DNA of 64,000 nt from Salinivirgaceae bacterium (GCA_024405635.1 JAKSOL010000002.1:153458-217457), one strand, 5' to 3'; shown: positions 27,255-42,042, counted from the first letter of the stretch. The notes: generated from the letters alone by a model not told the origin. Translations and numbers: made by a program.

Positions 27255-27824
27255 ATGAGAAAATTACTGCCAATATTATTGTTAGCCGCATTGTTTCAAT
27301 CTTGCACCTCGTGTCCTGAGTATATTAAAGCCTACGAGTTGAAGCGTTGTGTAAATGTGGTTAGGGTAGTTGAATTGGGGGCGATTGAACCGATGGTTGC
27401 TGCCGATAGTATAAGGTTGCTGCAACGTGAATACGAAACTCAATTGTGCAGTGCAATTGCCGAGCATAGGCATATTATTGATTCTCTTCAGGCAAAAATT
27501 CAAAAGACTGAGGCTGACATCAATAGCACATCGAGTGCTCAAATGGTTGAATTACTAAACAAGGGTATAAAATCAATGCGTTGGAAATGTAATGTTGCAC
27601 AGCAAGTTATTGATACATACCAAAACTCACCAGAGCAAACCAGATTGGCAGATATCTTGAATCAAATTTTGCATTTTCAGACAGATACGGCCGCAGTTGT
27701 GGCGTACAAACAAAAGTGTGTGTTTGTTGGTCGCCAAGGTTTGTTGCCAAAAGAAACCTATGTGCGAAATTATGTTCTGTCGTTTGATAGGGGCGAAATT
27801 GTTGGTGAACTTATTCAGCATTAA
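27255..27824 (+). CDS. Hypothetical lipoprotein with central coiled coil
   Basis: ATG at 27255; MRKLLPILLLAALFQSC lipobox. Confidence 0.65.
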   Translation: MRKLLPILLLAALFQSCTSCPEYIKAYELKRCVNVVRVVELGAIEPMVAADSIRLLQREYETQLCSAIAEHRHIIDSLQAKIQKTEADINSTSSAQMVELLNKGIKSMRWKCNVAQQVIDTYQNSPEQTRLADILNQILHFQTDTAAVVAYKQKCVFVGRQGLLPKETYVRNYVLSFDRGEIVGELIQH

Positions 27825-28956
27825 CAAATTGTCCCGCAAATAGCACCTCGTTTGTTGCTTTGTTTACAATGTAATAAACAAACGGGTGGTCGAACAATAC
27901 TGGAATGTCGCGCGATAGTGAACTCTTGGCAATCATTTCAATAGCAGTTGCGGCTGCAGCTTCGGTTCCTTTTTCATCTACGATTATTGTGGCATTGTGA
28001 AACACAGCACCTATTTTTAAATCGTTAGCTTGACTAATGCCCGAAAAGTTGGCAATGTTGCTGAACGCGTTTTTAAGACCTATATTTTTCAATGTTTCGC
28101 TAACATTTGTTGCTGTGTTGGTGTTGAATTTTGGCATCGATAATATAATGGAAGTTGGGCGCAGAACTTTGGCAATGTCGTTGAGTATGCCATTTTTGAA
28201 TCTCGAAAGCATTTCGGTAATAGTGCGGCCTTTGGGCATTATAATATACATTGATAATTGATTGCCGTTGTATGGGAGTTCAACTGCTTGAATGTTGCCA
28301 TCGGAGTAAAAGTTTAACATTTGCGTTTGTTGCATGAAAGATGCGCGTTGTGTTGTGTCGCCAAAAAAATCGCCATGCCAAGTGTTGCTGCTTTTGAATG
28401 GAGTAGCCCATTCGCCCGAAAAATCTATGGTGTTGGTTAGTAATAAACGAGTGTTCTTGTCAAGGGCGTTACTTGGTATAAGTTCCTTTATCTTGCCGTT
28501 AGTTTGTTGTTTTGCCCATTGGTTTATTGCATTGCGTGCTTTGGCTCGTTTTTTGTCCGATTTAAAGTCGCAAAGTTTTGCTTCTGCTTTAAAATTGTTT
28601 GCCATTTCTTTTTTGAACGAGGCATTTATAGGATAGTCATTTTGAACCCAAATAGCATTTGTAACGTTAACTTTGCATTTGCCGCTAATGGTTGAAACGC
28701 AAGGCTTTGAGTCGGTTGCAAGCAGCCTGTTAAACTCAACTTTTGTGTCGCCCTTTGCTCCCGTTGCTGCCATTTGCAATGCAGTGCTTATTGAAGCTGG
28801 CGAAAAAACAAAGTTTTGTTTTTCCATTTCTTTGGTCAGCTCCAGTTGTATTTTGTAGGGGAGTAATCCGGTGCTAAGCGCTTTGTTGGCGTTTTTTTGA
28901 GCTATTAAATTTGTGCTTGCAATAATGGCAAGAGTCAGGATTAGTATTTTTTTCAT
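27811..28956 (-). CDS. Secreted serpin (serine protease inhibitor)
   Basis: Signal peptide from ATG 28956; NFVFSPASI, INQWA...TNGKI, F.G.W.TPF, hinge EKGTEAAAAT, FDHPF, LFAGQ. Confidence 0.93.
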   Translation of the reverse strand: MKKILILTLAIIASTNLIAQKNANKALSTGLLPYKIQLELTKEMEKQNFVFSPASISTALQMAATGAKGDTKVEFNRLLATDSKPCVSTISGKCKVNVTNAIWVQNDYPINASFKKEMANNFKAEAKLCDFKSDKKRAKARNAINQWAKQQTNGKIKELIPSNALDKNTRLLLTNTIDFSGEWATPFKSSNTWHGDFFGDTTQRASFMQQTQMLNFYSDGNIQAVELPYNGNQLSMYIIMPKGRTITEMLSRFKNGILNDIAKVLRPTSIILSMPKFNTNTATNVSETLKNIGLKNAFSNIANFSGISQANDLKIGAVFHNATIIVDEKGTEAAAATAIEMIAKSSLSRDIPVLFDHPFVYYIVNKATNEVLFAGQFVNAE

Positions 28957-28960
28957 TTGG

Positions 28961-30355
28961 TTATCCGTTTTGTACTGTTTGTTCAACTTCGTCAATGGTT
29001 GATGGTACTTTTTTGCTACCCAAAACACGAGCTCCTGTTTCGGTAATAAGAAGGTCATCTTCAATTCTAACGCCACCAAAATCAATGTATTGCTCAACTT
29101 TGTTAAAATTAATGAACTCGGCATTTTTGCCAGACGCTTTCCATTGGTTAATAAGGTCGGGAATGAAGTATATGCCAGGTTCATCGCTCACAACAAAACC
29201 GGGTTGAAGAGTGCGGCCCATGCGTAACGATGATGTGCCAAATTGGTCAATTGGGCGTGTTATTTGGTCGTAACCAACATAAATCTGGCCTAAATTTTCC
29301 ATGTCGTGAACATCGAGTCCAATCATGTGCCCAAGTCCGTGCGGTAAAAACATTGCATGAGCACCAGCGGCTACGGCTTCGTCAATATCGCCCTTCATTA
29401 ATCCTAGGCTCTTAAGACCTTGTGCAATAATCTTGCAGCAAGCAAGGTGAACGCTCAAGTATGTTACTCCTGGTTTTGCAAGTTTAGCGGCAGCTTGGTT
29501 AGCATCAAGCACAATTTGGTAAATCTCTTTCTGTTTTTGTGTGAATTTGCCATTTACTGGAAATGTGCGAGTGTAGTCCGATGGGTATCCCATTGCAGTT
29601 TCGGCTCCAGCGTCAACCAACATAAGGCGCCCCGAGGTAATAGGATTGCCGTGATAGTGATTGTGTAGAGTTTGCCCATTTTGCGTTAATATGGTAGGAA
29701 ACGAAAAGTAACCTCCGTATTTGAGTGGAATACTATCTACGATGCTATGCAATTCGTACTCATTTTTTACACGAGTAACATTTTTCATTGCTGCTACATG
29801 CATTTCGTAACCAATAGCACAAGCAAATTCCATCTCTTCAATTTCTTCGGCCGATTTTACTGAGCGCAAATCTATTATGGCTTGTGTGAGTTTCATTGAA
29901 ATACCATTAGCAACCTCGTCAGTTGAGCGGTTCAGCATTTTAGATAGTTTTATTAAGGCATCAGCTCGATATTGTGGAGTGTACATTATGTCGCGGTCCA
30001 TTCTCATAGCAGTGTGCACATACTCAATGGCTTCAGAGGTTGGCTTTACTCTAGTGATTCCAGCAAGTAGCGCACGTTCGCGTATGGTTTGTTGTTTTCC
30101 CATCCATACAATGTCATCAATACTATATTCATCGGCAAAAATTATCTCTTCACCACTATCAAAATCAATGGCGGCCATAATGCCGGGTTGCCAAATGCCA
30201 AAAAAGTAAATAAATGTGCTGTCTTGACGAAAGCGATATGTATTGTCGGTGTAGTTCATAGGAGAATCGTTGTTTCCCATAAAAATTGCTACACCAGTTT
30301 TTACTTTGTCACGTAAAAGTCGGCGGCGAGTAGCGTAAGTGCTTGCGCCAAACAT
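28961..30355 (-). CDS. pepP: Xaa-Pro aminopeptidase (M24B)
   Basis: FRQDSTF.YFFG, LVDAG, DYTRT, HGLGHMIGLDVHD, EPGIYF, GVRIEDD; start 30355 or 30373; TACCTTTG promoter box at 30392-30399. Confidence 0.92.
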   Translation of the reverse strand: MFGASTYATRRRLLRDKVKTGVAIFMGNNDSPMNYTDNTYRFRQDSTFIYFFGIWQPGIMAAIDFDSGEEIIFADEYSIDDIVWMGKQQTIRERALLAGITRVKPTSEAIEYVHTAMRMDRDIMYTPQYRADALIKLSKMLNRSTDEVANGISMKLTQAIIDLRSVKSAEEIEEMEFACAIGYEMHVAAMKNVTRVKNEYELHSIVDSIPLKYGGYFSFPTILTQNGQTLHNHYHGNPITSGRLMLVDAGAETAMGYPSDYTRTFPVNGKFTQKQKEIYQIVLDANQAAAKLAKPGVTYLSVHLACCKIIAQGLKSLGLMKGDIDEAVAAGAHAMFLPHGLGHMIGLDVHDMENLGQIYVGYDQITRPIDQFGTSSLRMGRTLQPGFVVSDEPGIYFIPDLINQWKASGKNAEFINFNKVEQYIDFGGVRIEDDLLITETGARVLGSKKVPSTIDEVEQTVQNG

Positions 30356-30679
30356 GGTTCGTATTGTGTTCATTGTGTTTATGTTTTGAACCAAAGGTAG
30401 AAATAAGTTGTAAACTGATGAAATTGAAAAAAAGAGAGCGAAAATAAGAGTAGAGAGGCGTGCTTTTGGTAACTTTTTTCTGATTGTATCGTAAAAGTAT
30501 TTGTAGTGGTTATTAAAAAAAATCAGCAGTCTTTTAGTGGTTGATATTCAAATGATAAGAATAGAAATTGCTCAACAATGCATTAAAGAATAAAAAATAG
30601 GAGGCTTGGTTTAATGAAAAATACTACTTTTACAATTATCGGTTGCAAGACAATCGGTGTGGAATTATAGTTAATAGGT

Positions 30680-31534
30680 ATGATTAGTAACGACGATATT
30701 GCAAAGGTTCTGGCTGCTTTTAAAACGGCATCAACCTACGATTTTAGCGATTATTGCGACAGGTCGTTTGCGCGCCGAGTTGACAAGATTCTTACCGATA
30801 ATAAAATTTCTGCCGATTTGTTCGTGAAACAACTAATGAGTGATCGCGACTTCCTTGAAAAATCGGTGCGCGACATTACGGTAAACACAACCGAGCTTTT
30901 TCGCGATCCGCAAATGTGGCTCAACTTGCGCTATCAAGTGTTGCCTCGTTTTAAGGATAAACCTACAATTAAAATTTGGCATGCAGGCTGCTCATCGGGA
31001 CAAGAGATTTATTCAATGATGATTTTGCTTAACGAACTTGGCATGTTCGATAAAGCTCAAATCTTTGCTACCGATATAAATACCGCTGTTATTGAGGCCG
31101 CACAAACTGGTACTTACAAGTACATGTTCAACTTGAATTATTTGGACAACTTTGACAAGGTGATGCGCGAAAATCCGTACAACTTTGAGCAAAAGTACGA
31201 CGTCCCTTATGAAAAATACTTTGATATTGATAAGCGTAAGGACGTTATTCAAATGAATGATTTCTTGTGTAAGAAACCAGTGTTCCGTAAGCATGACTTG
31301 GTGAGCGGATGCAACCCATTCTATCACCAATTTGATTTAATATTGTGCCGCAACGTAATCATTTACTTTAATCCCAAATTGCAAAATAAGGTTATCAATA
31401 TGTTTGCAAATAACCTATCGGTAAATGGCTTTTTGATTTTGGGAGCTTCGGAAAGTATTTTGGGCTCGGCCAATAGTAGCTTTGAGCGAATGGTAGGTTT
31501 CTATCGTAAAAAACAAACAATTTCAATGTTTTAG
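30680..31534 (+). CDS. cheR: CheR-type protein-glutamate O-methyltransferase
   Basis: ITVNTTELFRD, IWHAGCSSGQEIYS, ATDIN, DLILCRNVIIYF, G.LILGASE. Confidence 0.93.
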   Translation: MISNDDIAKVLAAFKTASTYDFSDYCDRSFARRVDKILTDNKISADLFVKQLMSDRDFLEKSVRDITVNTTELFRDPQMWLNLRYQVLPRFKDKPTIKIWHAGCSSGQEIYSMMILLNELGMFDKAQIFATDINTAVIEAAQTGTYKYMFNLNYLDNFDKVMRENPYNFEQKYDVPYEKYFDIDKRKDVIQMNDFLCKKPVFRKHDLVSGCNPFYHQFDLILCRNVIIYFNPKLQNKVINMFANNLSVNGFLILGASESILGSANSSFERMVGFYRKKQTISMF

Positions 31535-31537
31535 CTT

Positions 31538-32365
31538 ATGATAGAAACTTTGGGTATAGTGGATATTAGAAAAATGAACGGATTTGTGTCCGAGGCATTT
31601 GGCATTAATTTGGCCGACTATGCGTCAACCATATTAAAACGCCGCTATGTGCACATGCTCAATACATATAATTGCGTGTCGGTAGATAATTTTGAGGATA
31701 GAATAAAAAAAGGAATAATTACCGCCGATGATGTGATGTATGAAGTGTCGCTAGAGACTACAGAATTGTTCCGCGATCCTTCGGCTTGGCGCGAAATGCG
31801 TGACAAATACTTGCCAGAAGTGTGCAAGTCGGGCAAGTGTAATATATTAATGCCCGGCGAGTCTTCAGGTGACGAACTTTACTCAATGATGATAGTGTTG
31901 TCTGAAGCAAATTTGTTAGATAAAGTTCAAGTAGATGCGTATTGCCCATCAAACCGAAACTTGAAACAAATAAAAGATGGTGGTTTGTATGATTCCAAAA
32001 AATTAGAGTTGGGTGATGCAAACTATACTAGATATTCGGGGCCTAAAACATTGTCCAACTATTATACATTGGTGGACAATAGAGCAAAAATGCAATCATC
32101 GTTGCTTAATGGGGTAAATCTTTCGGTGCGCGATGTACAGAAAAATGCCGACACAAAACGATATAAAATGATAGTGTATCGAAATGTGTTGCTGCAATAT
32201 TCGGTTCCATTGTATGAGCGAGTGGTGAAAACCTTAGTTGATAAACTTGACATAGGCGGTTACTTGATTATTGGCGATATGGAGACCCTTGAGTATTGCG
32301 ATTCAAACCGAAAATTGGTTTTGGTTGATAGCGCTGAACAGGTGTATCGTAAAAAGATGGATTAG
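31538..32365 (+). CDS. Second, degenerate CheR-like protein
   Basis: TELFRDP, SSGDELYS, RNVL and GGYLIIG.ME retained; AGC replaced by PGE and ATDI by AYCP. Confidence 0.8.
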   Translation: MIETLGIVDIRKMNGFVSEAFGINLADYASTILKRRYVHMLNTYNCVSVDNFEDRIKKGIITADDVMYEVSLETTELFRDPSAWREMRDKYLPEVCKSGKCNILMPGESSGDELYSMMIVLSEANLLDKVQVDAYCPSNRNLKQIKDGGLYDSKKLELGDANYTRYSGPKTLSNYYTLVDNRAKMQSSLLNGVNLSVRDVQKNADTKRYKMIVYRNVLLQYSVPLYERVVKTLVDKLDIGGYLIIGDMETLEYCDSNRKLVLVDSAEQVYRKKMD

Positions 32366-32368
32366 AGT

Positions 32369-32935
32369 ATGGAAAGCGAATATAAAGCCATAATGATTGG
32401 AGGTTCTGCCGGAAGTTTTCAGGTGGTGTGCAAAATAATAGCCGCATTGCCTGCCGACTATCCATTGCCAATTATTATGTGTTTGCATAGATTGAAACAT
32501 GTGCGTTCGGGCTTTGTTGAGGCTCTTTCAATTAAATCAAAGTTGCCTATAATTGAGCCCCACGACAAAGAACCTCTACGCAATGGTCGCATATATTTGG
32601 CTCCCGCAAACTATCACATGTATATAGAGTTGGGTAACCGTTTTTCACTATCTACTGAGGATGTGATTAATCACTCGCGCCCATCAATCGATTTGTCATT
32701 CTTTTCCGCCTCGTACAATTATAAGCGTAAGTTGGTGGGAATAATTCTTAGTGGAGCCAACAAAGATGGAGCTCTAGGATTGAAAAGTGTAGCAGACGGT
32801 GGAGGCTTGACTATAGTCCAAGATCCTAAAGAATGTCAAGTCCCAACAATGACTACAGCTTCAATGAATGCAACAAAAGTTGACCATATATTTACAACCA
32901 AACAAATTATTGACTTTTTGCTTAAACTAACATAA
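32369..32935 (+). CDS. cheB: Stand-alone CheB methylesterase (no receiver domain)
   Basis: GGSAG (Ser), CLHR (His), SRPSID, LSGANKDGA (Asp), IVQDP. Confidence 0.92.
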   Translation: MESEYKAIMIGGSAGSFQVVCKIIAALPADYPLPIIMCLHRLKHVRSGFVEALSIKSKLPIIEPHDKEPLRNGRIYLAPANYHMYIELGNRFSLSTEDVINHSRPSIDLSFFSASYNYKRKLVGIILSGANKDGALGLKSVADGGGLTIVQDPKECQVPTMTTASMNATKVDHIFTTKQIIDFLLKLT

Positions 32936-32945
32936 CCCTAATTGT

Positions 32946-33698
32946 ATGGATATTTTGAAACACAAAAGCAAAACGTACACTTGCGGCATCTTGATGATGC
33001 TACTTTGTGTAGTTTCAATTATAGTACTGCTTTGCGGTAGCCAAAATATGGGCAATATAGCATCGCTCACATTGTTGGCATTGCTAGTTCTAATGGCGTT
33101 TATGGCGTTCAGTATGATGCTTATGGGCATCAAAATGGTAGACACAGTTATCGAAACCGAAGAAGATCGAATGATTGAGACCGAAGACCAATACGAGCAA
33201 AAGGTTGATGATATTATAAGAGATATAGATCAACGAGATTTCGATTTGGAAAAGGTAGCATCTCTTGTAACTAAAAACGAAGGTTGGAAAATGTTTGCAG
33301 AATCTCTTTTATCTTCGTTGTCAAAGCAAGTTGATATGGCGATAGGAATTGTATATAAGGCCGAAAAAGATGATAATGGAGATGTGTTTAATCCAGTGGC
33401 AACATATGCATATTATAGCGATCAAGCTCCATCCAGTTTTAGAGTGGGAGAGGGTATATCGGGACAAGTGGTGTTAGATAAAAAATCAATGATGCTAAAC
33501 GAATTGTCAAACAAAAACATGACAATAGTGTCGGGGTTAGGCGAGTCGCAAGTCAATAATTTGGCAATTGTTCCAATTTTAAAGGACGATAATGTGGTCG
33601 GTTTAATAGAAATTGCTACATTTAAACCATTGGAAAAATGTGTAGCAAGCAAGATAGATGATTTGTCTAAAGTAATTGGTAATATTGCACCTTTATAA
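32946..33698 (+). CDS. Two-TM GAF-domain protein
   Basis: Two N-terminal hydrophobic helices; ATYAY, F.VGEGISGQ, IVSGLG, IVPI, GLIEIATF GAF signature. Confidence 0.85.
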   Translation: MDILKHKSKTYTCGILMMLLCVVSIIVLLCGSQNMGNIASLTLLALLVLMAFMAFSMMLMGIKMVDTVIETEEDRMIETEDQYEQKVDDIIRDIDQRDFDLEKVASLVTKNEGWKMFAESLLSSLSKQVDMAIGIVYKAEKDDNGDVFNPVATYAYYSDQAPSSFRVGEGISGQVVLDKKSMMLNELSNKNMTIVSGLGESQVNNLAIVPILKDDNVVGLIEIATFKPLEKCVASKIDDLSKVIGNIAPL

Positions 33699-33710
33699 AC
33701 TGAAAACCTA

Positions 33711-36338
33711 ATGGGAATTTTAGTTGATACCATAAAGAGTGTCCTAGTATATAGGGCAAACAACAAGGAGAACTACGTGCCAAGCATGGTATGTATAGGC
33801 ATACTTGTAGTTGTCGTGTCGTGGATTGTTGCGTTTATAAGCAACGATATCGAAGTGTCTATTGTAGGATTGACAGAAATACACGGCCAAAATGCAATTT
33901 TGTTTGTTGTTGATTTGCTCCCATTTATAATGGGAGGTATTGGTTATGTGTTTACAAAATCAACACGCCAAGCAATACATGAGTTGACTGCTGAAATAAA
34001 CGAGAAGAATCGTGTTATTACACAAAATGCTCAATTTGCAAAAAAAATAGGTGAAGGCGATTTTAATGCTCAAGATGGAGAGGTTGATGATAACGATGTG
34101 TTAGGCCACTCGTTGAAAATTATGAAGAACAACCTTGCCGAAACTAATGAAAAAGAGAAAGAACATAACTGGATTGCAAAAGGAAAGGATTCAATTGCTG
34201 ATATCTTGCGCAAACAGTCAGAACTTGATAAACTATCGTATGAGACTTTGGTTGAGGTAATTAAATACATTGATGTTATTCAAGGTGCGTTTTATATCTA
34301 CAACGAAGACGAAAAAGTGTTGGAAAATACAGCGACTTATGCATATAACCGCCGCAAATATCAAAACGCAAGTTTTGCTATAGGAGAGGGCTTGGTCGGT
34401 CAATGTGCATTTGAGATGGATGTGATTTTCCGTCGCGAGATTCCTGATGATTTTATCACAATTACTAGTGGCATATTAGGTGAGCAAAAACCAACGTCGT
34501 TATTGCTGGTGCCTTTAGTGTCTGACGAAAAATTGCAAGGAGTTCTTGAATTTGCGTCATTAAAAGACGATATCACTGATTTGAAAATCAGATTTGTGAA
34601 AGAGTTGAGTGATGTTATTGCCCGTACTATTTCAAACTTAAAAGTATCTGCAAATACATCACGACTATACGATGAGTCCCAAAAAATGACAAAGGAATTG
34701 AAGGAGAGCGAGATTGCGCTTCTTCAAGAAAAAGAGCAATTGCAAGAAACTCGTGAGGAGGTTGAGAAGAAAAATGCTGACCTTAATGCACAAAACGAGA
34801 AGATTGAAAATGCGCAAAAGCGTTTGAATTCATTGCTTGAAAATGCTTCGGAGATTATTTCAATCTATGACGAAAATAGAGTGCTTACATACATAAGTCC
34901 TTCAGTTGTAAATATATATGGCTACACTGGAGATGAAATGATTGCAGGTAAGGACCTTGATAGGTTGACAGCAAAAGGTATTAAAGAGTTTGCAGAGGCA
35001 TTTACAAAACTACTTGAAGATCCTGAAACTCCGCAAACAATTCAATATACTTATATGAGGAAAGATGGCCAAAAGATCTTTATAGAATCAATTGGTCGAA
35101 ATTTGTTGAACGACCCAGCAATTAAGGGTATCATTATCAACTCGCAAGATATAACTGAGCGTAAACGTGCAGAGAAAGAGGAGCGCATGAAGAGTAAAAT
35201 GCAGTCGTTGTCCGAAAACTCTCTTGATATGATTACTCGTGTTGGTACTACTGGTATATTTTTCTATGCAAACCCAGTGGTTAAAAAATATACAGACATT
35301 GAGCCCTCAGCGTTGATTAACAAGAATTTGAATGAAGTTGATTTCCATCCGCAAATCAAAGTGTCGCTTAACGAAGCAATACAAATTGTGAAAGAAACTC
35401 ATGAGAAACACGATACAGAGGTTACTTTCCCAACTAATTTTGGTGATCGTATAATGCAAGTAAATGCAATACCAGAGTTTAGCGACGATAACAAAGAATT
35501 GGAAACTATTTTGCTTGTTGCTCACGATATTACTGAGCAAAAGATGGCGGAAATGGAAATTCAAGAGAAGAATAAATCAATTACCGAGAGTATCAACTAT
35601 GCTAAACGAATTCAGAACTCAATTCTGCCAAATACCAAGTTTATACAAGAGTATTTGCCGAACTCGTTCATATTGTATCGCCCTCGTGAGGTTGTAAGTG
35701 GAGACTTCCCTTGGTTCTTTAAAAAAGGTGATGACTTGTTTATCGCAGCAGTTGATTGTACAGGTCATGGTGTGCCGGGAGCTTTGTTGTCGTTTATTGG
35801 TTATTTTACATTGAATAATGTTGTTGACCACTATGACAATATTAACGCAGGTCAAATCCTAGATAAGGTTCACGAAGGGGTTCGTACAACATTGAAGCAA
35901 GATCGTATTGATTCTGAGGCTCGAGATGGTATGGATATGGCACTTTGTAAAATAAACCTTAAGAAAAATATACTAGAATTTGCAGGTGCTCATCGTCCTT
36001 TGTATTTGACGAGAGGAAAAGAATTGATTCAATACAAAGGAAGCCATAAGGCAATTGGAGGTATACCATTGGGTAAGAAACAGGAGGAAGATTTTGAGAA
36101 TCATTTGATAAATCTTGAAGCTGGTGACCGCGTATTTTTCTTCTCTGATGGATTCCCTGACCAAGTAGGAGGAGATAGTGGAAGAAAATATCAAACAAAT
36201 AGAATGCGAGAAGTGCTTTTAAATAACACAGAAGCAACTATATTTGAGCACGAAAAAATATTGAATGATGATTTGGAAGCTTATAGAGGAAACTATAAGC
36301 AAGTTGATGATATATTATTAATAGGTATAGAGTTTTAA
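33711..36338 (+). CDS. Membrane sensor phosphatase: TM-HAMP-like-GAF-coiled coil-PAS-PAS-SpoIIE/PP2C (SiaA-like)
   Basis: GEGLVGQC GAF; two PAS domains ending DITERK and DITEQK; PP2C motifs VSGDF, DCTGHGVPGA, DGMD, FSDG..DQ, DDILLIG. Confidence 0.9.
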   Translation: MGILVDTIKSVLVYRANNKENYVPSMVCIGILVVVVSWIVAFISNDIEVSIVGLTEIHGQNAILFVVDLLPFIMGGIGYVFTKSTRQAIHELTAEINEKNRVITQNAQFAKKIGEGDFNAQDGEVDDNDVLGHSLKIMKNNLAETNEKEKEHNWIAKGKDSIADILRKQSELDKLSYETLVEVIKYIDVIQGAFYIYNEDEKVLENTATYAYNRRKYQNASFAIGEGLVGQCAFEMDVIFRREIPDDFITITSGILGEQKPTSLLLVPLVSDEKLQGVLEFASLKDDITDLKIRFVKELSDVIARTISNLKVSANTSRLYDESQKMTKELKESEIALLQEKEQLQETREEVEKKNADLNAQNEKIENAQKRLNSLLENASEIISIYDENRVLTYISPSVVNIYGYTGDEMIAGKDLDRLTAKGIKEFAEAFTKLLEDPETPQTIQYTYMRKDGQKIFIESIGRNLLNDPAIKGIIINSQDITERKRAEKEERMKSKMQSLSENSLDMITRVGTTGIFFYANPVVKKYTDIEPSALINKNLNEVDFHPQIKVSLNEAIQIVKETHEKHDTEVTFPTNFGDRIMQVNAIPEFSDDNKELETILLVAHDITEQKMAEMEIQEKNKSITESINYAKRIQNSILPNTKFIQEYLPNSFILYRPREVVSGDFPWFFKKGDDLFIAAVDCTGHGVPGALLSFIGYFTLNNVVDHYDNINAGQILDKVHEGVRTTLKQDRIDSEARDGMDMALCKINLKKNILEFAGAHRPLYLTRGKELIQYKGSHKAIGGIPLGKKQEEDFENHLINLEAGDRVFFFSDGFPDQVGGDSGRKYQTNRMREVLLNNTEATIFEHEKILNDDLEAYRGNYKQVDDILLIGIEF

Positions 36339-36357
36339 AACATAAAATATAATTGCT

Positions 36358-36933
36358 ATGGAAAATTCAGATTTCCTAGATTTTGTTTACAATTTCAGCG
36401 ACTCAATGGGCAAACGAAATGCCGAGTTGGTTTATAAAGGTGAGATATCGCACCAAGTAACCAAGGCGTTTACTTCGTTGACCGAAACAAGTATGTTGAT
36501 GGAGCAAGAACCTAATTCGGTGCAGAAAAAGGTTTTTCACGTTATTGTAGAGTTCTTGCAAAATATTAGCAAACACGCTGATAGCTTGGAAACTGGAGAA
36601 GACCGCCGTGAGGGTAGCGGAGTGTTCTTGCTTTGCAAAGACGAGGAAAATTATACCATAACAACAGGTAATGTGATGATGATTCACAAGAAAGACGCAA
36701 TAGCATCAATTCTTGAGAAAATCAACTCATTGGACCGAGAAGGGTTGAAAGCCTTGTATAAGCAGCAGATTAAGGACGGCCGTTTGAGCGAAAAAGGTGG
36801 CGCAGGCTTAGGCTTTATTGATATAGCAAAGAAAACAGGTAATAAACTTAATTATTCGTTTGTCCAATTGAATGACGAGTATACATTTTTTATTATATCA
36901 TCAACAATTTCGAGAACTCAATTATCAGATTAA
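36358..36933 (+). CDS. siaB: SiaB-family (DUF6272) GHKL-type Ser/Thr protein kinase
   Basis: YKGEI, VFHVIVEFLQNISKH (N box), TGN, GGAGLGFIDIAKK. Confidence 0.88.
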   Translation: MENSDFLDFVYNFSDSMGKRNAELVYKGEISHQVTKAFTSLTETSMLMEQEPNSVQKKVFHVIVEFLQNISKHADSLETGEDRREGSGVFLLCKDEENYTITTGNVMMIHKKDAIASILEKINSLDREGLKALYKQQIKDGRLSEKGGAGLGFIDIAKKTGNKLNYSFVQLNDEYTFFIISSTISRTQLSD

Positions 36934-36955
36934 CACTTAATAAATTATATAAATT

Positions 36956-37339
36956 ATGGAAGTAATTAAAATAGTTGGAACCGACGATACTCCAAGTGTA
37001 ACACTAGACGTTGCAAACGAAATTTTTGAAATTTCAGGACGTTCACTTCCTGAGGACGTTGCAATGTTTTATAAACCTATTTTGGATTGGTTGGACCGTT
37101 ATGCTGATGAGGCAACAGGTAGCACTGTGTTTAACTTCAAATTGGTTTACTTCAATACTGCATCTTCAAAAATGATTCTTGATATCCTTTTGAAATTAGA
37201 GGAAATACATGAGTCGGGAAAAGAAGTGCTCATTAAATGGTATTATCCTGATGACGACGAAGACATGGAAGAGGCAGGTGAAGAATACTCTGACATTGTT
37301 GATGTGCCATTTGAGCAAATTAGCTATTCATTGGATTAA
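36956..37339 (+). CDS. siaC: SiaC-family (DUF1987) phosphoprotein
   Basis: TP.V, ISGRSLPE, FYKPILDW, YFNT68ASSK, WYY..DDEDMEEAGEE. Confidence 0.92.
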   Translation: MEVIKIVGTDDTPSVTLDVANEIFEISGRSLPEDVAMFYKPILDWLDRYADEATGSTVFNFKLVYFNTASSKMILDILLKLEEIHESGKEVLIKWYYPDDDEDMEEAGEEYSDIVDVPFEQISYSLD

Positions 37340-37385
37340 TTTTTTTTCTATAGATATCTATAGTTCTATAAAGAAACACTTTTAG

Positions 37386-40300
37386 ATGAGTGAAGAGATC
37401 TTAAAGGCCTTAATGCAGCTCTTTGCGATTATTGCAAAGCAGGATGGTGGCGTAAAGGAAAGCGAGATAGACTTTGTAGAAAATTTCTTGACTTCTCAAT
37501 TGAGTTCAGACTTGGTTGAGGAGTTTTTGGCTTTATTCTACAAACACGCCCAAATTAGTGGCCGTGAGGATTTGCAAAAGGCAAAAGAAAACGAAGACGT
37601 TAAGTTAACTTCGGTAACCGACTCGGTTCGTATTCTTGGTATATGCAAAAAGATTAACAAGACACTGACCCAACAACAAAAGGTTGTTACGTTGGTGCGT
37701 TTGTTTGAGTTGGTTGCAGCTGACCGCCAATTTACAGAGCAGCGTATGGCCATTATCAATACAGTGGCCGAAGTATTTAATGTTTCGTCAGAGGAATTTT
37801 CAAATACTGAAACGTTTGTTGTTAAAGAATCGGTTGATGGTCTTGATGTCGCAAGCATGTTGATTATCAACGATAAACCTCTTGAATTAACAGCTGCTAA
37901 GCATATCCAAATTGAAGATCTTGACCAAGAATTGGTAATACTCCAAATAAAGAGTGTTGACCTTTACTTCTTGAAGTATATGGGTAGCCATGAGCTTTTG
38001 CTTAATGGTCTGCCAATCAAAGGAAATAAAATTTACTTGTTTGCTAATGGTAGTGCAATTCGCTTCCCTAAAGGTAAACCAGTATATTATAGCGACGTTG
38101 TTTCAAAATACTTGGCCGATGTAACTTCTGCCAAAATCACTTACAACGTTAATGATCTTGAGTATAAATTCCCAAATGGCGCAATAGGTTTGCGTAACAT
38201 CAACTTGTCGGAGGAGCAAGGCAAGTTAGTTGGAATTATGGGCGCTAGTGGTGCAGGAAAAACAACATTGTTAAATGTACTTACTGGCAACGAACGCCCA
38301 TCGCAAGGAAATGTTCTTATAAACGGCATTGACCTTCATAATGAGAAGGAAAAAATGGAAGGTGTTATTGGATATATTCCACAAGACGACCTTTTGATAG
38401 AGGAACTGACAGTGTATCAGAACCTTTATTTCAATGCTAAATTGTGCTTCAAAAATATGAGCGATGAGGAAATTCAGGAGCGAGTTGATAAAACATTGCT
38501 AAACTTGGGTTTGCTTGATCGTAAGGATTTGAAAGTAGGTTCGCCTCTACATAAAACCATTAGTGGTGGTCAGCGCAAGCGTTTGAATATCGCGCTTGAA
38601 TTGATAAGGGAACCCCCTGTATTGTTTGTTGATGAGCCTACATCTGGTTTGTCGTCGCGCGACTCGGAAAACGTAATGGACTTGTTACGTGAGTTGTCGT
38701 TGAAGGGAAAATTGATATTTGTTGTTATTCACCAACCATCGTCAGAAATCTACAAGATGTTTGACAAAATGGTGATACTTGATACTGGCGGTTATCTTAT
38801 TTATTATGGAAACCCAGTTGATGCAGTTACCTATTTCAAAAAGATTGATGGACAATTGAATTCAGACCAAGGTGAGTGCCCAACTTGTGGTAATGTTAAC
38901 CCGGAATTGATATTTAACATTATTGATGCTCAGGTGGTTGACGAGTTTGGTAGATATACTAACAAACGTAAAGTAACACCAGTTGAGTGGGAGGATAAAT
39001 TTGCAGAGGTTAACAAAAATGTGAAATTGCCCGACCAAAAGGAAACTCCACCTAAATCTTTGGATATTCCAAAATGGATAGATCAGGTAAAGATTTATTT
39101 CCGTCGCGATTTCTTGGCAAAGATTAGTAATAGGCAATATATTTTGATGAACATATTGGAGGCTCCAATTTTGGGACTTATCCTTTCATTTTTGATTCGC
39201 TATATTGCTGATCCTAATTCTAATGTGTATATCTTCCGCGAAAACGCAAATATTCCAATTTACGTTTTCATGAGTATGATTGTGGCAATGTTTTTAGGAT
39301 TGATGGTGAGTGGTGAGGAAATTTTTAAAGACCAAAAGATTTTGAACCGCGAAAAGTTTTTGAACTTGAGCCGATCGTCTTATTTGGTTGCAAAAATCGC
39401 CATACTATTCATTATTTCGGCCATTCAGTCAATTTTGTTTGTGCTTGTAGCCAACTCAATATTGGGAGTTAGAGGAATGTGGTTCGAATATTGGTGGGCA
39501 TTGTTCACCATTGCAACCTTCTCAAATATGACAGGCTTAATTCTGTCGTCAACATTTAACTCTGCCGTTACCATTTACATTATGATTCCATTGGTAATGA
39601 TTCCACAAATGGCGTTGGGTGGTGCAATGTTCAGTTTTAATAAATTGAACCGAGCAATTGGTAGTGTTAATGGAGTTCCTCCAATTTGTGAGTTTATTGC
39701 AACTCGTTGGGTTTACGAAGGAATGATTGTACGTCAATATAAGGATAATAAGTTTGAGCGTTATTTCTATGAATATGAAAGACAGGTTAGCGTTGGAGAC
39801 TTTAAAACTACGTTCTATCTTCCAGAATTGAGTGAACGAGTTGATCGTTGTGCTTTTGCTTGTGGTTCGGTTATGACCGATGCAGATGCAAATACCTATA
39901 AATGGGAATTGGCTACATTGAAAAATGAGCTTGGAAAAGAAAAGACTCGTGTTCCTGATAGTTTGTTAAACTATTCGTTTGAATATCTTGAAGATCTTAC
40001 TATTGAGAAGTTTACTCCAGAAGTTGGAGCATATACTCGTGAGTATATTGAGTTGCTAAAACAGTATTATAAAAAAATGGCCGACGACGCTACTCTTCGT
40101 ATAGAAACTATAAAGAATTATTGGGAAAGTAAAAGTCCTGGCCAGTTCCAAAGACTACGTCAAGCGTATCTGAATGAAGCTATACAAGATATTGTACTTA
40201 ATAAAATTGAAGCAAATAAAGTTTTGTCGTACAAAGATAGGCTAATACAACAAGTTGATCCAATATATGAAACACCATGGGTAAATAATATCTTTGATTA

Positions 40301-40493
40301 CAGAGCACAGTTCTTCTCTCCAACCAAATATTTCTTAGGCCACGAATTTGATACCTTTTGGTTTAATATGTGGGTGGTATGGTTAATGACAATCGCATTT
40401 TATTTTGTGTTGTATTACGATGGTTTGAAGAAACTTATGAATGTTTCAATAGGAGATTTTGTCAAGAAATTGACGAAAAAATTTCAAAAATGA
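37386..40493 (+). CDS. ABCG-type (NBD-TMD) half transporter with TerB-like N-terminal domain and a large extracytoplasmic loop
   Basis: GASGAGKT, ISGGQRKR, LFVDEPTSGL, VIHQP; ABC-2 membrane domain; N-terminal LMQLFAIIAKQDGGV..SE. Confidence 0.9.
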   Translation: MSEEILKALMQLFAIIAKQDGGVKESEIDFVENFLTSQLSSDLVEEFLALFYKHAQISGREDLQKAKENEDVKLTSVTDSVRILGICKKINKTLTQQQKVVTLVRLFELVAADRQFTEQRMAIINTVAEVFNVSSEEFSNTETFVVKESVDGLDVASMLIINDKPLELTAAKHIQIEDLDQELVILQIKSVDLYFLKYMGSHELLLNGLPIKGNKIYLFANGSAIRFPKGKPVYYSDVVSKYLADVTSAKITYNVNDLEYKFPNGAIGLRNINLSEEQGKLVGIMGASGAGKTTLLNVLTGNERPSQGNVLINGIDLHNEKEKMEGVIGYIPQDDLLIEELTVYQNLYFNAKLCFKNMSDEEIQERVDKTLLNLGLLDRKDLKVGSPLHKTISGGQRKRLNIALELIREPPVLFVDEPTSGLSSRDSENVMDLLRELSLKGKLIFVVIHQPSSEIYKMFDKMVILDTGGYLIYYGNPVDAVTYFKKIDGQLNSDQGECPTCGNVNPELIFNIIDAQVVDEFGRYTNKRKVTPVEWEDKFAEVNKNVKLPDQKETPPKSLDIPKWIDQVKIYFRRDFLAKISNRQYILMNILEAPILGLILSFLIRYIADPNSNVYIFRENANIPIYVFMSMIVAMFLGLMVSGEEIFKDQKILNREKFLNLSRSSYLVAKIAILFIISAIQSILFVLVANSILGVRGMWFEYWWALFTIATFSNMTGLILSSTFNSAVTIYIMIPLVMIPQMALGGAMFSFNKLNRAIGSVNGVPPICEFIATRWVYEGMIVRQYKDNKFERYFYEYERQVSVGDFKTTFYLPELSERVDRCAFACGSVMTDADANTYKWELATLKNELGKEKTRVPDSLLNYSFEYLEDLTIEKFTPEVGAYTREYIELLKQYYKKMADDATLRIETIKNYWESKSPGQFQRLRQAYLNEAIQDIVLNKIEANKVLSYKDRLIQQVDPIYETPWVNNIFDYRAQFFSPTKYFLGHEFDTFWFNMWVVWLMTIAFYFVLYYDGLKKLMNVSIGDFVKKLTKKFQK

Positions 40494-40543
40494 TAAAACA
40501 AAAAAATAATAGATAATTTTACAACCCTAAACGTAAGATTGAT

Positions 40544-41467
40544 ATGAACAGAAAGTTCCAATTTCTTTTTGGCACTCTATTAGCAGGCTCATTGTTATTG
40601 GTGGGTTGCCAAGGTGATGGTAATAAATCGAGTAAGTCAGACGATTTTTCTATACCGGATTCAATTTTTGACAACAAGCCTTTGATGATTTCAAAGGATG
40701 CAATGAATGATATTATTGAAAATCTTTCATCGCCAATTGAAATGGCTGCGTTATTAAAATCAGCAGGTGTGCCATTTCAACAAAAATATTTGGCTCCAAC
40801 TAACCGAGTTGACGGATTGACAACCAACTTTGAGCAAGCTTTAAATCTTGGTGTTTATGGTTGCGATCTTGGATACTTGAACATGTATGAAAAAACAGGT
40901 TCAATTATCAATAGCATGACAGCAATTAAAAATCTTGCAAATGCGTTGCGTATTGGCCAGTTCTTTGATTTTAATACAATTAAACGTTTGGCAACCAACA
41001 ATGAAAATATTGACTCGTTGATGTATATTTCGGTTTCGGCGTTCAATAATATGGACGAATATCTTCGCGAGAACAATCGTAGCAATATCAGTGCATTGCT
41101 TATGACAGGTATGTGGCTTGAAGGTATGTACCTTGCAGGTCAAGTTGCTAAAGAGTCGCCAAATGCTAGCGATATAATTGAACGTATTGGAGACCAAAAA
41201 CTAGTGCTTAACGACCTTATTTTGGTGCTTAAGAATTATAAATCAGACCCAAGTTTTGCCAAACTAATTAAAGAGATTGAGTTAATTAAAAAGGAGTATG
41301 AGAACGTGAGGATTACTTATGAAATGGGTGAACCTGAGGCAAAAGAGATTGACGGAATGCTTGTTATTATTCAAACAGACAAACAGAATGTTGAAATTTC
41401 AAATGAAACCTTGGGCAAAATTATTTCAGCAATTGAAAATGCTCGTTCGATGATTATCAATTTGTAG
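40544..41467 (+). CDS. Hypothetical helical lipoprotein; paralog of 17806-18645
   Basis: Lipobox LVGC; SPIE, ALNLGVYGCDLGY, GMWLEGMYL, DQKLVL. Confidence 0.85.
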   Translation: MNRKFQFLFGTLLAGSLLLVGCQGDGNKSSKSDDFSIPDSIFDNKPLMISKDAMNDIIENLSSPIEMAALLKSAGVPFQQKYLAPTNRVDGLTTNFEQALNLGVYGCDLGYLNMYEKTGSIINSMTAIKNLANALRIGQFFDFNTIKRLATNNENIDSLMYISVSAFNNMDEYLRENNRSNISALLMTGMWLEGMYLAGQVAKESPNASDIIERIGDQKLVLNDLILVLKNYKSDPSFAKLIKEIELIKKEYENVRITYEMGEPEAKEIDGMLVIIQTDKQNVEISNETLGKIISAIENARSMIINL

Positions 41468-41479
41468 AAATACTGACAT

Positions 41480-41914
41480 ATGAAAAGATTATCAATCTAC
41501 ATATTACTTTCTTTATTTTTGGTTGTATTTGCGACAAGCAAAACTAGTGCTCAAGACAACGAATTGGTTAATGTTTGTGCTTTGGGTATTGGTAACGCAA
41601 CATATCTAAAGGACTTTAAGGTTAAATTGCCAGCAAGTGCTGCAGCGGCACCGTCTACCAAATTCAATGTAATTTTGAATAAAGGTACTATGTACAAAAT
41701 TACTGTATGTAATGCCGAAGGATATGAAGGTAAGGCTGTTGTGAGTCTTTTGGAAGGCCCCAAAGCTCTTGGTTCTAATCTAAATGCTGATGGTTCGTTT
41801 CAACCTGCAATTGGTTTTATGTGCCAAAAAACAGGTATGTATAACATTGTAGTGTCGTTTAAAGGTGGAAAAGAAGGTGCGGCTGTTGCAATTTTGTCGT
41901 ACGTTAACAAATAA
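41480..41914 (+). CDS. Small secreted beta-rich hypothetical protein
   Basis: Signal peptide ending AQD; three Cys in the mature part; last gene before the terminator. Confidence 0.8.
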   Translation: MKRLSIYILLSLFLVVFATSKTSAQDNELVNVCALGIGNATYLKDFKVKLPASAAAAPSTKFNVILNKGTMYKITVCNAEGYEGKAVVSLLEGPKALGSNLNADGSFQPAIGFMCQKTGMYNIVVSFKGGKEGAAVAILSYVNK

Positions 41915-41938
41915 GCTATCAAACACTATTTAATATAT

Positions 41939-41972
41939 GAAAGAGAACTATTATAGTTCTCTTTCGTTTTTT
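41939..41972 (+). terminator. Terminator closing the cheR-sia-ABC operon
   Basis: gaaagagaacta-tta-tagttctctttc followed by gttttttt. Confidence 0.85.
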
Positions 41973-42042
41973 ATAGGCGTATGCTATTTTTTAAATAGTT
42001 AGTGCTAAATGTTAAATCACCTTAGATAAATAGTTTTATAAT

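Follow-up and report, generated by a model that had tools for sequence, protein, structure and literature searches.

In a stretch of 64,000 nucleotides from a Salinivirgaceae bacterium, a member of the gut Bacteroidales (GCA_024405635.1, JAKSOL010000002.1:153458-217457; hereafter the window), a ten-gene operon at positions 30680-41914 combines a CheR/CheB methylation set with a Sia-type partner switch and an ABCG-type transporter. With moderate confidence we propose that it encodes the core of a signalling pathway of three coupled modules, namely adaptation, partner switch and exporter output, that operates without methyl-accepting chemotaxis proteins (MCPs) and without CheA. The adaptation module, consisting of CheR1, a degenerate CheR2, a CheB without receiver domain and a small transmembrane (TM)-GAF protein, would reversibly methylate heptad-spaced Glu-Glu sites on a helix that follows the GAF domain of membrane sensors. 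Its targets would be the eight sensors of this kind in the bacterium's own genome, seven of which are output-less, the eighth being the receptor-phosphatase of the operon. By homology to the SiaABC proteins of Pseudomonas aeruginosa, the PP2C domain of the receptor-phosphatase and the SiaB-family kinase would set the phosphorylation of SiaC at Thr68, and unphosphorylated SiaC is predicted by a complex model to dock with its Thr68 face on the TerB-like domain of the transporter. In concert with the lipoprotein and the secreted protein of the operon, the transporter would place the export of an envelope compound, which we guess to be lipid-like, under the control of the pathway. We infer each functional link in this chain.

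A listing of the open reading frames (ORFs) of the window recovered ten co-oriented ORFs on the + strand with the exact coordinates given in an earlier note that had been made from the sequence alone. The intergenic gaps measured, in gene order, 3, 3, 10, 12, 19, 22, 46, 50 and 12 bp, as the range of 3-50 bp in that note had implied. The genes, and two segments within them that are central to the proposal, are as follows.

30680..31534, + strand: cheR1, CheR-type protein-glutamate methyltransferase, 284 aa
31538..32365, + strand: cheR2, divergent CheR paralogue, 275 aa
32369..32935, + strand: cheB, methylesterase domain only, 188 aa
32946..33698, + strand: TM-GAF protein, 250 aa
33711..36338, + strand: receptor-phosphatase (two TM segments, linker, GAF, helix, PAS, PAS, PP2C/SpoIIE), 875 aa
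34635..34859, + strand: post-GAF signalling helix of the receptor-phosphatase, aa 309-383, candidate methyl-accepting segment
36358..36933, + strand: siaB-family kinase, 191 aa
36956..37339, + strand: siaC phosphoprotein, 127 aa; Thr68 codon at 37157-37159
37386..40493, + strand: TerB/FHA-like/ABCG transporter, 1035 aa
37605..37640, + strand: codons of transporter residues 74-85 (LTSVTDSVRILG), SiaC docking strip predicted from the interface of the complex model
40544..41467, + strand: lipoprotein, 307 aa, lipobox with Cys22
41480..41914, + strand: small secreted protein, 144 aa, signal-like N-terminus

A conserved helix as candidate methyl acceptor

Pfam searches and TM prediction assigned two TM segments, a conserved linker, a GAF domain (residues 172-307) and a PP2C/SpoIIE domain (673-874) to the receptor-phosphatase. 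Pfam annotation confirmed nearly all of the domains that the earlier note had listed for the operon; the HAMP domain it had placed in this 875-aa protein gave no Pfam match at E<=0.01, and HAMP domains were present in two paralogous sensors of the same genome. When 14 full-length PP2C proteins were aligned, conservation was highest in the stretch directly after the GAF domain. The consensus of this helix (alignment A1), NLKVNxRTEKLLxESQxMTxELQENEEELRQNAEEMRATQEELEKxN, exhibits Glu-Glu pairs at positions 27-28, 34-35 and 41-42, each with a Leu or Met next to it, and all three pairs are kept in 13 of the 14 PP2C proteins. Across 32 aligned helices, the central pair was E-E in 27 and was followed by x-x-A-T in 24; seven residues before it, the pair was found in 21 helices (E-Q in four more), and seven residues after it E-E occurred in 26. 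The central site fits the chemoreceptor methylation consensus exactly.

The same helix follows the GAF domain in output-less sensors that adjoin these operons in other genomes. Within the bacterium's own genome, eight ORFs carry it, of which seven are without an output domain and only the operon protein ends in an enzyme. According to Pfam, the seven others begin, for example, with dCache or HAMP and continue with GAF, the helix and PAS, and six of them keep the exact site. On the strength of these sequence features, the helix following the GAF domain is the likely methyl acceptor.

Another acidic segment, the C-terminal strip of SiaC (DEDMEEAGEEY), was considered as methyl acceptor as well. 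It was dropped because the Pfam SiaC match (residues 7-123) runs through the strip, which thus looks like a part of the family domain.

Two sensor loci were recorded in passing. In the own genome at C35:22775-25184 (L079 2276-4685), a 410-aa sensor of the GAF-helix type keeps the E-E-x-x-A-T site exactly; its gene is divergent to one for a GldM N-terminal-domain protein, a neighbourhood that may point to gliding or type IX secretion. In one relative (G047), a 114-aa protein (L072 4213-4557, + strand) between an output-less GAF-PAS sensor and the receptor-phosphatase showed a weak match to the chemoreceptor zinc-binding (CZB) domain, with 26.3 bits against a Pfam cut-off of 29.4.

The methylation enzymes and the TM-GAF protein

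CheR1 matched Pfam CheR with 136.6 bits and the CheR structure 5ftw in the PDB with an E-value of 1.1e-25, and the usual CheR motifs are retained in all 17 orthologues inspected. The match of CheR2 was weak (Pfam CheR, 56.7 bits; 5ftw, E 4.5e-07). This second protein evolves fast, with 22-50% identity among relatives. The consensus of its 20 orthologues is without the AGCS and ATD(I/N) motifs that CheR1 retains and that we take to be the S-adenosylmethionine-binding motifs of CheR. From its sequence, CheR2 may be non-catalytic and perhaps an adaptor.

CheB could be aligned with Thermotoga maritima CheB (3sft, E 1.5e-22), and its Ser (in GGSAG), His (in CLHR) and Asp (in NKDG) coincide with identical residues of that structure. 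The Pfam CheB_methylest match (157.2 bits) covers residues 8-183, and there is no receiver domain. We take the three aligned residues to be the catalytic triad. In classical CheB, the receiver domain restrains the enzyme.

In the TM-GAF protein, two predicted TM segments are joined by an acidic, helical linker to a short GAF domain (Pfam GAF_2, 41 bits) of the same subtype as that of the sensors, with no helix past the GAF domain. It is this small protein (or yet another one) that could itself be the substrate of CheR and CheB, serving as a minimal methyl-accepting transducer that relays to the sensors. We consider this unlikely. Its gene is the one constant neighbour of cheR1-cheR2-cheB and always lies 3' of cheB, even where the PP2C-sia-ABC block sits elsewhere, and the linker between the TM segments and the GAF domain is Glu-rich in 20 of 20 relatives. 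The protein evolves fast, however (24-46% identity), whereas the post-GAF helix is near-invariant and matches the methylation-site consensus. We thus continue to regard the helix of the sensors as the better candidate acceptor.

Linkage of the sensor family with the enzyme set

We compared 60 related genomes, 32 from the same family and 28 from other families of the order. Orthologous CheB without receiver domain was present in 31 of the 32 same-family genomes, the exception being G023, a genome that is 65% complete, and in 11 of the 28 others (57-74% identity). Twenty loci were fetched around these CheB relatives. All ten genes occurred in the same order in 11 of them, from at least five families; two of these complete loci hold an extra GAF-PAS sensor gene between cheR1 and cheR2. 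Two further loci comprise nine genes, cheR1 not being found in the fetched stretch, and three are cut by contig ends. One locus (G056, L060 32-4564) carries a GAF-HisKA-HATPase-REC hybrid kinase directly before cheR-cheB, an arrangement like that of RsbK in Bacillus cereus, but with an esterase. In the three that are left (G040, G047 and G058), the set ends with the TM-GAF gene and unrelated genes follow; the PP2C-siaB-siaC-ABC-lipoprotein-secreted block stands together elsewhere in each of these genomes. This six-gene block was complete in 17 loci overall. Over the 60 relatives, the che and PP2C-sia-ABC blocks showed identical presence and absence, and in 13 of the 16 loci that are informative, drawn from several families, the two stood side by side. 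Only the closest genus has flanking genes in common with the window. The operon thus consists of two blocks that are usually adjacent, separable and co-occurring. The earlier note had named a lack of co-conservation as an observation that would speak against a joint system; the number of complete loci, and the presence of both blocks in genomes where they are separated, show the contrary.

The helix motif followed the same distribution. A profile built from A1 found 7-15 copies per genome in all 32 members of the family. In the other families, strong matches occurred in exactly those 11 genomes that have an orthologue of CheB as well as one of the transporter, at 4-24 copies per genome. Among the 17 other-family genomes without orthologous CheB, 16 gave no match and one (G050) a weak one, and genomes with only receiver-type CheB (e.g., G033, G035, G041 and G043) gave none. 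In a second sample of 200 genomes drawn evenly over the phylum, strong matches (three, E 2e-15 or better) were confined to G171, the sole genome with a 61%-identical CheB; five weak matches (E ~1e-4) fell into ORFs of about 2000 aa (four) and of 694 aa (one). Across all 260 genomes, the motif tracks the orthologous CheB with a single exception, G023. At the level of sequence, this phyletic result is a linkage of the sensor family with the enzyme set, as distinct from contact between enzyme and substrate.

Several observations weigh against the proposed pathway. The helix of the window's own receptor-phosphatase is the most degenerate of the genome's eight: its sites read I-A, E-Q..E-T and E-E, so that the first site is lost, and it scored 34.7 bits on the A1 profile versus about 85 for its orthologues. 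The phosphatase of the window may thus be a poor methylation substrate in its own genome and, since six other sensors keep the exact site, methylation may therefore act there mainly on those sensors. The idea in the earlier note that methylation tunes a phosphatase has to be widened: the target is probably the whole family of eight GAF-helix sensors, of which the phosphatase is one, with the most degenerate helix. As to linkage, the three loci that hold only cheR1-cheR2-cheB and the TM-GAF gene show that the blocks can part; ten of the 200 phylum genomes have short CheB-like genes (34-40% identity) and no strong A1 match; and G023 has the motif, with no orthologous CheB found in that incomplete assembly. 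Moreover, the genomes are kin, and membership of a single clade may account for some of the phyletic match; because the PP2C orthologue is itself among the motif-bearing proteins, some of the co-occurrence is also trivial.

These observations could also be read in terms of two independent, often neighbouring systems, in which CheR, CheB and the TM-GAF protein would serve the output-less sensors, signalling elsewhere, and PP2C, SiaB, SiaC and the transporter would form a switch free of methylation. The separated blocks of G040, G047 and G058 and the degenerate helix of the window's PP2C protein, alongside six intact sensors, are what such a division predicts. Set against this are the shared presence and absence of the blocks over 60 relatives, their adjacency in most informative loci, and the retention of all three E-E pairs in nearly all aligned PP2C proteins, which make two separate systems improbable. 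We therefore keep to the coupled pathway.

The Sia-type partner switch

The receptor-phosphatase matched SpoIIE with 62.3 bits, above the cut-off of 25, and the NCBIfam SiaA equivalog with 192 bits over residues 603-873, that is, over the PP2C domain only and below the 700-bit cut-off. The kinase belongs to the NCBIfam family SiaB_fam_kinase (NF038262; 157.2 bits, cut-off 85), with further matches to Pfam DUF6272 (137.5 bits) and to the structure 6kko_A (E 6.4e-15); for the strict SiaB equivalog it scored 83.6 bits versus a cut-off of 225. Likewise, SiaC is a member of the Pfam family SiaC (PF09345, DUF1987; 144.5 bits) and stays below the cut-off of the equivalog (90.4 versus 150 bits). It aligned with P. 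aeruginosa SiaC (6kko_C/7e6g, E 5.1e-17) such that the phosphorylatable position falls on a Thr in both proteins. This residue, Thr68, lies within the invariant motif YFNTASSK and was conserved in 18 of 18 sequences. The proteins that the earlier note had called SiaB-like and SiaC-like are true Sia-type relatives, Thr68 of SiaC being kept, and the PP2C domain is SiaA-like and probably belongs with them.

Ten further SiaC paralogues are encoded in the own genome, on contigs C32, C2, C17, C5 (two), C8, C23, C25, C4 and C36 (L061-L069). One sits with a DUF6272 kinase, DUF7935, DUF6057 and a PD40 protein, and another adjoins a TPR-PP2C protein and a CNNM/CBS protein.

The transporter as predicted target of SiaC

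The transporter comprises a TerB-like helical domain (residues 1-146), an FHA-like beta domain (158-230), ABC_tran (269-420) and ABC2_membrane (567-755), with about 240 hydrophilic residues between the fifth and the last predicted TM segment (991-1009). Its ATPase domain precedes the ABC-2 membrane domain and its nearest relatives are ABCG proteins, which makes it an ABCG-type (type V) exporter. The TIGR00955 score of 270.5 bits is below the cut-off. Among solved relatives of the transporter core, ABCG1, CDR1, ABCG5 and ABCA proteins were closest; the match to ABCG1 (E 5.6e-43) covered residues 19-505 of a query that starts at transporter residue 251.

An AlphaFold2 model of the first 262 residues (pLDDT 85.1) exhibited a helical TerB-like domain (3-146) followed by the beta domain (158-230). 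The TerB-like PDB entries 2h5n and 2ou3 were among the Foldseek matches of this N-terminal part. For the beta sandwich, nearly all of the best PDB matches were FHA domains, at a probability of about 1 and TM-scores by target of 0.42-0.58. The model indicates that the transporter carries, beyond TerB, a second, FHA-like regulatory domain that the earlier note had overlooked. A caveat is that the Foldseek E-values for FHA are weak (0.015-0.3) and that Pfam gave no FHA match in the transporter.

Modelling of SiaC together with the N-terminal part of the transporter yielded ipSAE values of 0.79, 0.79 and 0.78, whereas the best of three controls reached 0.00; such a score is model confidence and no measurement, which tempers this part of the proposal. 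Of 157 solved complexes, 116 came up to this ipSAE mark, as did two of 215 mismatched pairs; the counts are rough as our own alignments were used. The partner pLDDT was 92, and the runs agreed in 100% of contacts. The modelled interface is formed by SiaC residues 63, 65-72 (including Thr68), 75 and 103-114 and by transporter residues 74-85, 88 and 119-130, with Thr68 contacting Asp79 and Ser80. In alignment A2, the transporter residues D79, S80, V81 and G85 were at least 90% conserved. The model supports docking of SiaC on the TerB domain with the Thr68 face in contact. In P. aeruginosa, phosphorylation of SiaC is reported to preclude its binding to SiaD (PMC8457831). By analogy, a phosphate next to Asp79 would plausibly block binding of SiaC to the transporter. 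The earlier suggestion that the transporter sits where siaD normally does gains support from the complex model and its controls.

The ABC genes might also be no more than co-transcribed cargo, with SiaC acting on another target as its ten paralogues would. In favour of this can be cited the 11 SiaC genes in varied neighbourhoods of the own genome and, as a further point that counts against the docking scheme, the two TerB-ABC transporter paralogues of this genome (43-44% identity), neither of which has a SiaC neighbour. Yet siaC lies directly 5' of the transporter gene in 17 of 17 loci, the complex model stands far above its controls with Thr68 in the interface, and both paralogues without SiaC beside them differ in the docking strip. 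We hence judge the cargo explanation quite unlikely and retain the transporter as the predicted SiaC target.

Ahead of one of the two paralogues lie genes for relatives of the lipoprotein and of the small protein. The second paralogue (C18:25984-34240, L076) stands back to back with two dCache-GAF-helix sensors that bear the acceptor motif and is followed by GT4 and GT90 glycosyltransferases; no SiaC is nearby.

The lipoprotein carries a Cys22 lipobox that was invariant in 13 of 13 relatives. Its AlphaFold2 model (pLDDT 78.5) is a helical bundle plus a small sheet and found no fold match in the PDB (best TM-score 0.25 or less, E 0.4 or more). The small secreted protein starts with a hydrophobic, signal-like segment. 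Neither protein belongs to a Pfam or NCBIfam family, and the ESM Atlas returned only unnamed Bacteroidota clusters. As for the export substrate, our guess by analogy would be a lipid-like or envelope compound.

Chemotaxis components of the genome

Profile searches over the own genome (2.66 Mb in 36 contigs, 99.78% complete) gave no match for MCPsignal, CheW, the CheA dimerisation domain (H-kinase_dim) or GGDEF. The same MCPsignal, CheW and CheA searches yielded matches in eight of 14 control genomes. The absence of MCP, CheA, CheW and GGDEF that had been noticed for the operon thus holds genome-wide and, with no GGDEF match in the whole genome, a diguanylate cyclase SiaD is not available as target. 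The two CheR genes and the one CheB gene of the operon are the sole CheR and CheB genes of the genome. Since the genome is without any MCP match, they cannot act on MCPs encoded elsewhere, as the earlier note had allowed; that the pair serves classical chemoreceptors has, in so complete a genome and with searches that were positive in controls, practically no probability. Parts of partner switches are abundant, with 11 SiaC, five DUF6272 and 12 SpoIIE matches.

Comparison with known systems

The methyltransferase RsbM of B. cereus is of the CheR type. A study of this organism describes its partner RsbK as a CHASE3-HAMP-GAF-S-helix-kinase-receiver protein whose S-helix is methylated by RsbM, in a pathway with a PP2C phosphatase and a partner switch at its end; no esterase is paired with RsbM, and 127 RsbK-like kinases are reported in 10 phyla (PMC4574943). 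The likeness of RsbK-RsbM-RsbY and RsbV/RsbW/sigma-B to the present operon lies in the membrane GAF sensor followed by a signalling helix, the methyltransferase gene alongside, and the PP2C phosphatase with its partner switch. GAF domain, helix and adjacent cheR are all present in the operon; a HAMP domain of the RsbK type was not detected in the PP2C protein. RsbK is a hybrid histidine kinase that acts via a separate receiver-PP2C protein, whereas here PP2C is fused to the sensor with no kinase or receiver step. RsbM is described as unpaired, whereas CheB, a second CheR-like protein and the TM-GAF protein belong to the set here. The switch is RsbW/RsbV in B. cereus and SiaB/SiaC here, and the output is a sigma factor there and a transporter here. 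A further difference lies in numbers: here, each genome has 4-24 sensors with the motif and a single enzyme set for them. RsbK/RsbM is the closest precedent for a methylated post-GAF helix, and the statement in the earlier note that no characterised system has this layout overlooks it.

With SiaABCD of P. aeruginosa, the operon shares a membrane PP2C protein (SiaA), the kinase SiaB and SiaC with Thr68, the unphosphorylated SiaC binding the product of the next gene (PMC8457831; 10.1101/674879; PDB 6kko, 7e6g). It differs in that SiaD and GGDEF are missing and the next gene encodes the TerB/FHA-like/ABCG transporter, in the GAF domain, helix and two PAS domains of the phosphatase, in the CheR/CheB genes upstream, and in scores that do not reach the NCBIfam equivalog cut-offs of SiaA and SiaC. 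Chemoreceptor adaptation (PMC1079850) offers the pairing of CheR with CheB, Glu-Glu-X-X-Ala-Thr sites at heptad spacing, many receptors per enzyme set, and Gln at the site in some paralogues. In contrast, the present system is without an MCP signalling domain, CheA, CheW or CheY, its CheB is receiver-less, and the acceptor helix lies between GAF and PAS domains. A report on Mycobacterium tuberculosis Rv1747 describes an FHA-bearing ABC transporter that is regulated by Ser/Thr phosphorylation (PMC3138270). It resembles the present transporter in the order of nucleotide-binding and membrane domains and, putatively, in N-terminal FHA-type regulation under the control of Ser/Thr phosphorylation. 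Rv1747 has two FHA domains and a Hanks kinase encoded alongside, whereas here one FHA-like fold is joined by a TerB-like domain and the predicted contact is with an unphosphorylated switch protein. No description of the operon was found in the literature searched, with subscription journals outside its coverage; among the papers listed there, those on Sia proteins dealt with the P. aeruginosa system, and others used the name 'sia' for unrelated genes.

What is new is how the parts are combined, together with a complete writer/eraser pair, a direct fusion of sensor and PP2C, a layout of many receptors with one enzyme set, and a SiaC that is predicted to be aimed at a transporter. To our knowledge, textbooks describe reversible methylation of glutamate only for chemoreceptors. 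RsbK/RsbM is the one studied exception and, because it is without an esterase, it is without obvious adaptation. Here, a complete writer/eraser pair is retained in gut and other Bacteroidales that are without chemoreceptor, CheA or cyclic di-GMP cyclase, and alongside it stand a defined output and a sensor family whose members are candidate acceptors. This suggests that receptor-style adaptation tunes export rather than swimming. If this is true, bacterial sensors would use methylation-based adaptation as a general device, SiaC, a widespread family, would have a second kind of target, and a partner switch could gate ABC export. Concrete, testable residues exist in the acceptor sites, on the Thr68 face of SiaC and in the docking strip.

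A bolder reading, possible and on balance doubtful, is that of a system like a chemoreceptor array that has no chemoreceptors. In it, 4-24 output-less methyl-accepting HAMP-GAF-helix-PAS receptors per genome would share one set of CheR, CheR', CheB and TM-GAF protein and converge, via mixed oligomers, on one receptor-phosphatase in the role of CheA, with SiaC-gated ABCG export as output. Such a system would be a third type of chemosensory pathway and would be native to Bacteroidota that lack flagella.

Operon boundaries, transcription and neighbouring genes

Two features flank the ten genes.

30395..30679, + strand: intergenic region upstream of cheR1, 285 bp, facing a divergent aminopeptidase P gene
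41937..41977, + strand: terminator-like hairpin, 14-pair stem plus T run

The upstream region is the presumed promoter region of the operon. A scan for sigma-70-like patterns gave 56 hits versus 44.3 +/- 5.7 in shuffles, barely above, so that a promoter is not established by a pattern that is not informative for this phylum. The hairpin, also delimited as 41937-41967, begins 23 bp past the last stop codon. The closing terminator of the earlier note is thus present as a hairpin with a T run, although the region is not enriched in patterns of this kind over its shuffles (eight found versus 8.3 expected).

In three metatranscriptome runs from three studies of animal gut, RNA contigs of at least 99% identity were scattered from cheR1 to the last gene and spanned the PP2C/siaB, siaB/siaC and lipoprotein/secreted-protein junctions; each run left parts of the operon uncovered. 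Such libraries may contain DNA, their contigs show neither a single transcript nor transcript ends, and holes in coverage prove nothing. The contigs are compatible with transcription of the operon and do not prove one transcript.

Elsewhere in the window, a 457-aa serpin (Pfam Serpin, E 2.6e-89) is encoded at 27811-29184 on the - strand, just upstream of the divergent neighbour gene of the operon; serpins are uncommon in bacteria. A 1505-aa ORF at 48075-52592 (+ strand) gave no Pfam match and has a GC content of 0.52-0.54 versus 0.33-0.44 in the region; it may be foreign DNA. Ribosomal RNA was considered as an explanation for two GC-rich stretches (48-52 kb and 60-62 kb) and dropped, with no Rfam match found between 45 and 64 kb. 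Finally, positions 54091-62334 (+ strand) encode a 2747-aa protein with SprB repeats and a type IX secretion C-terminal sorting domain.

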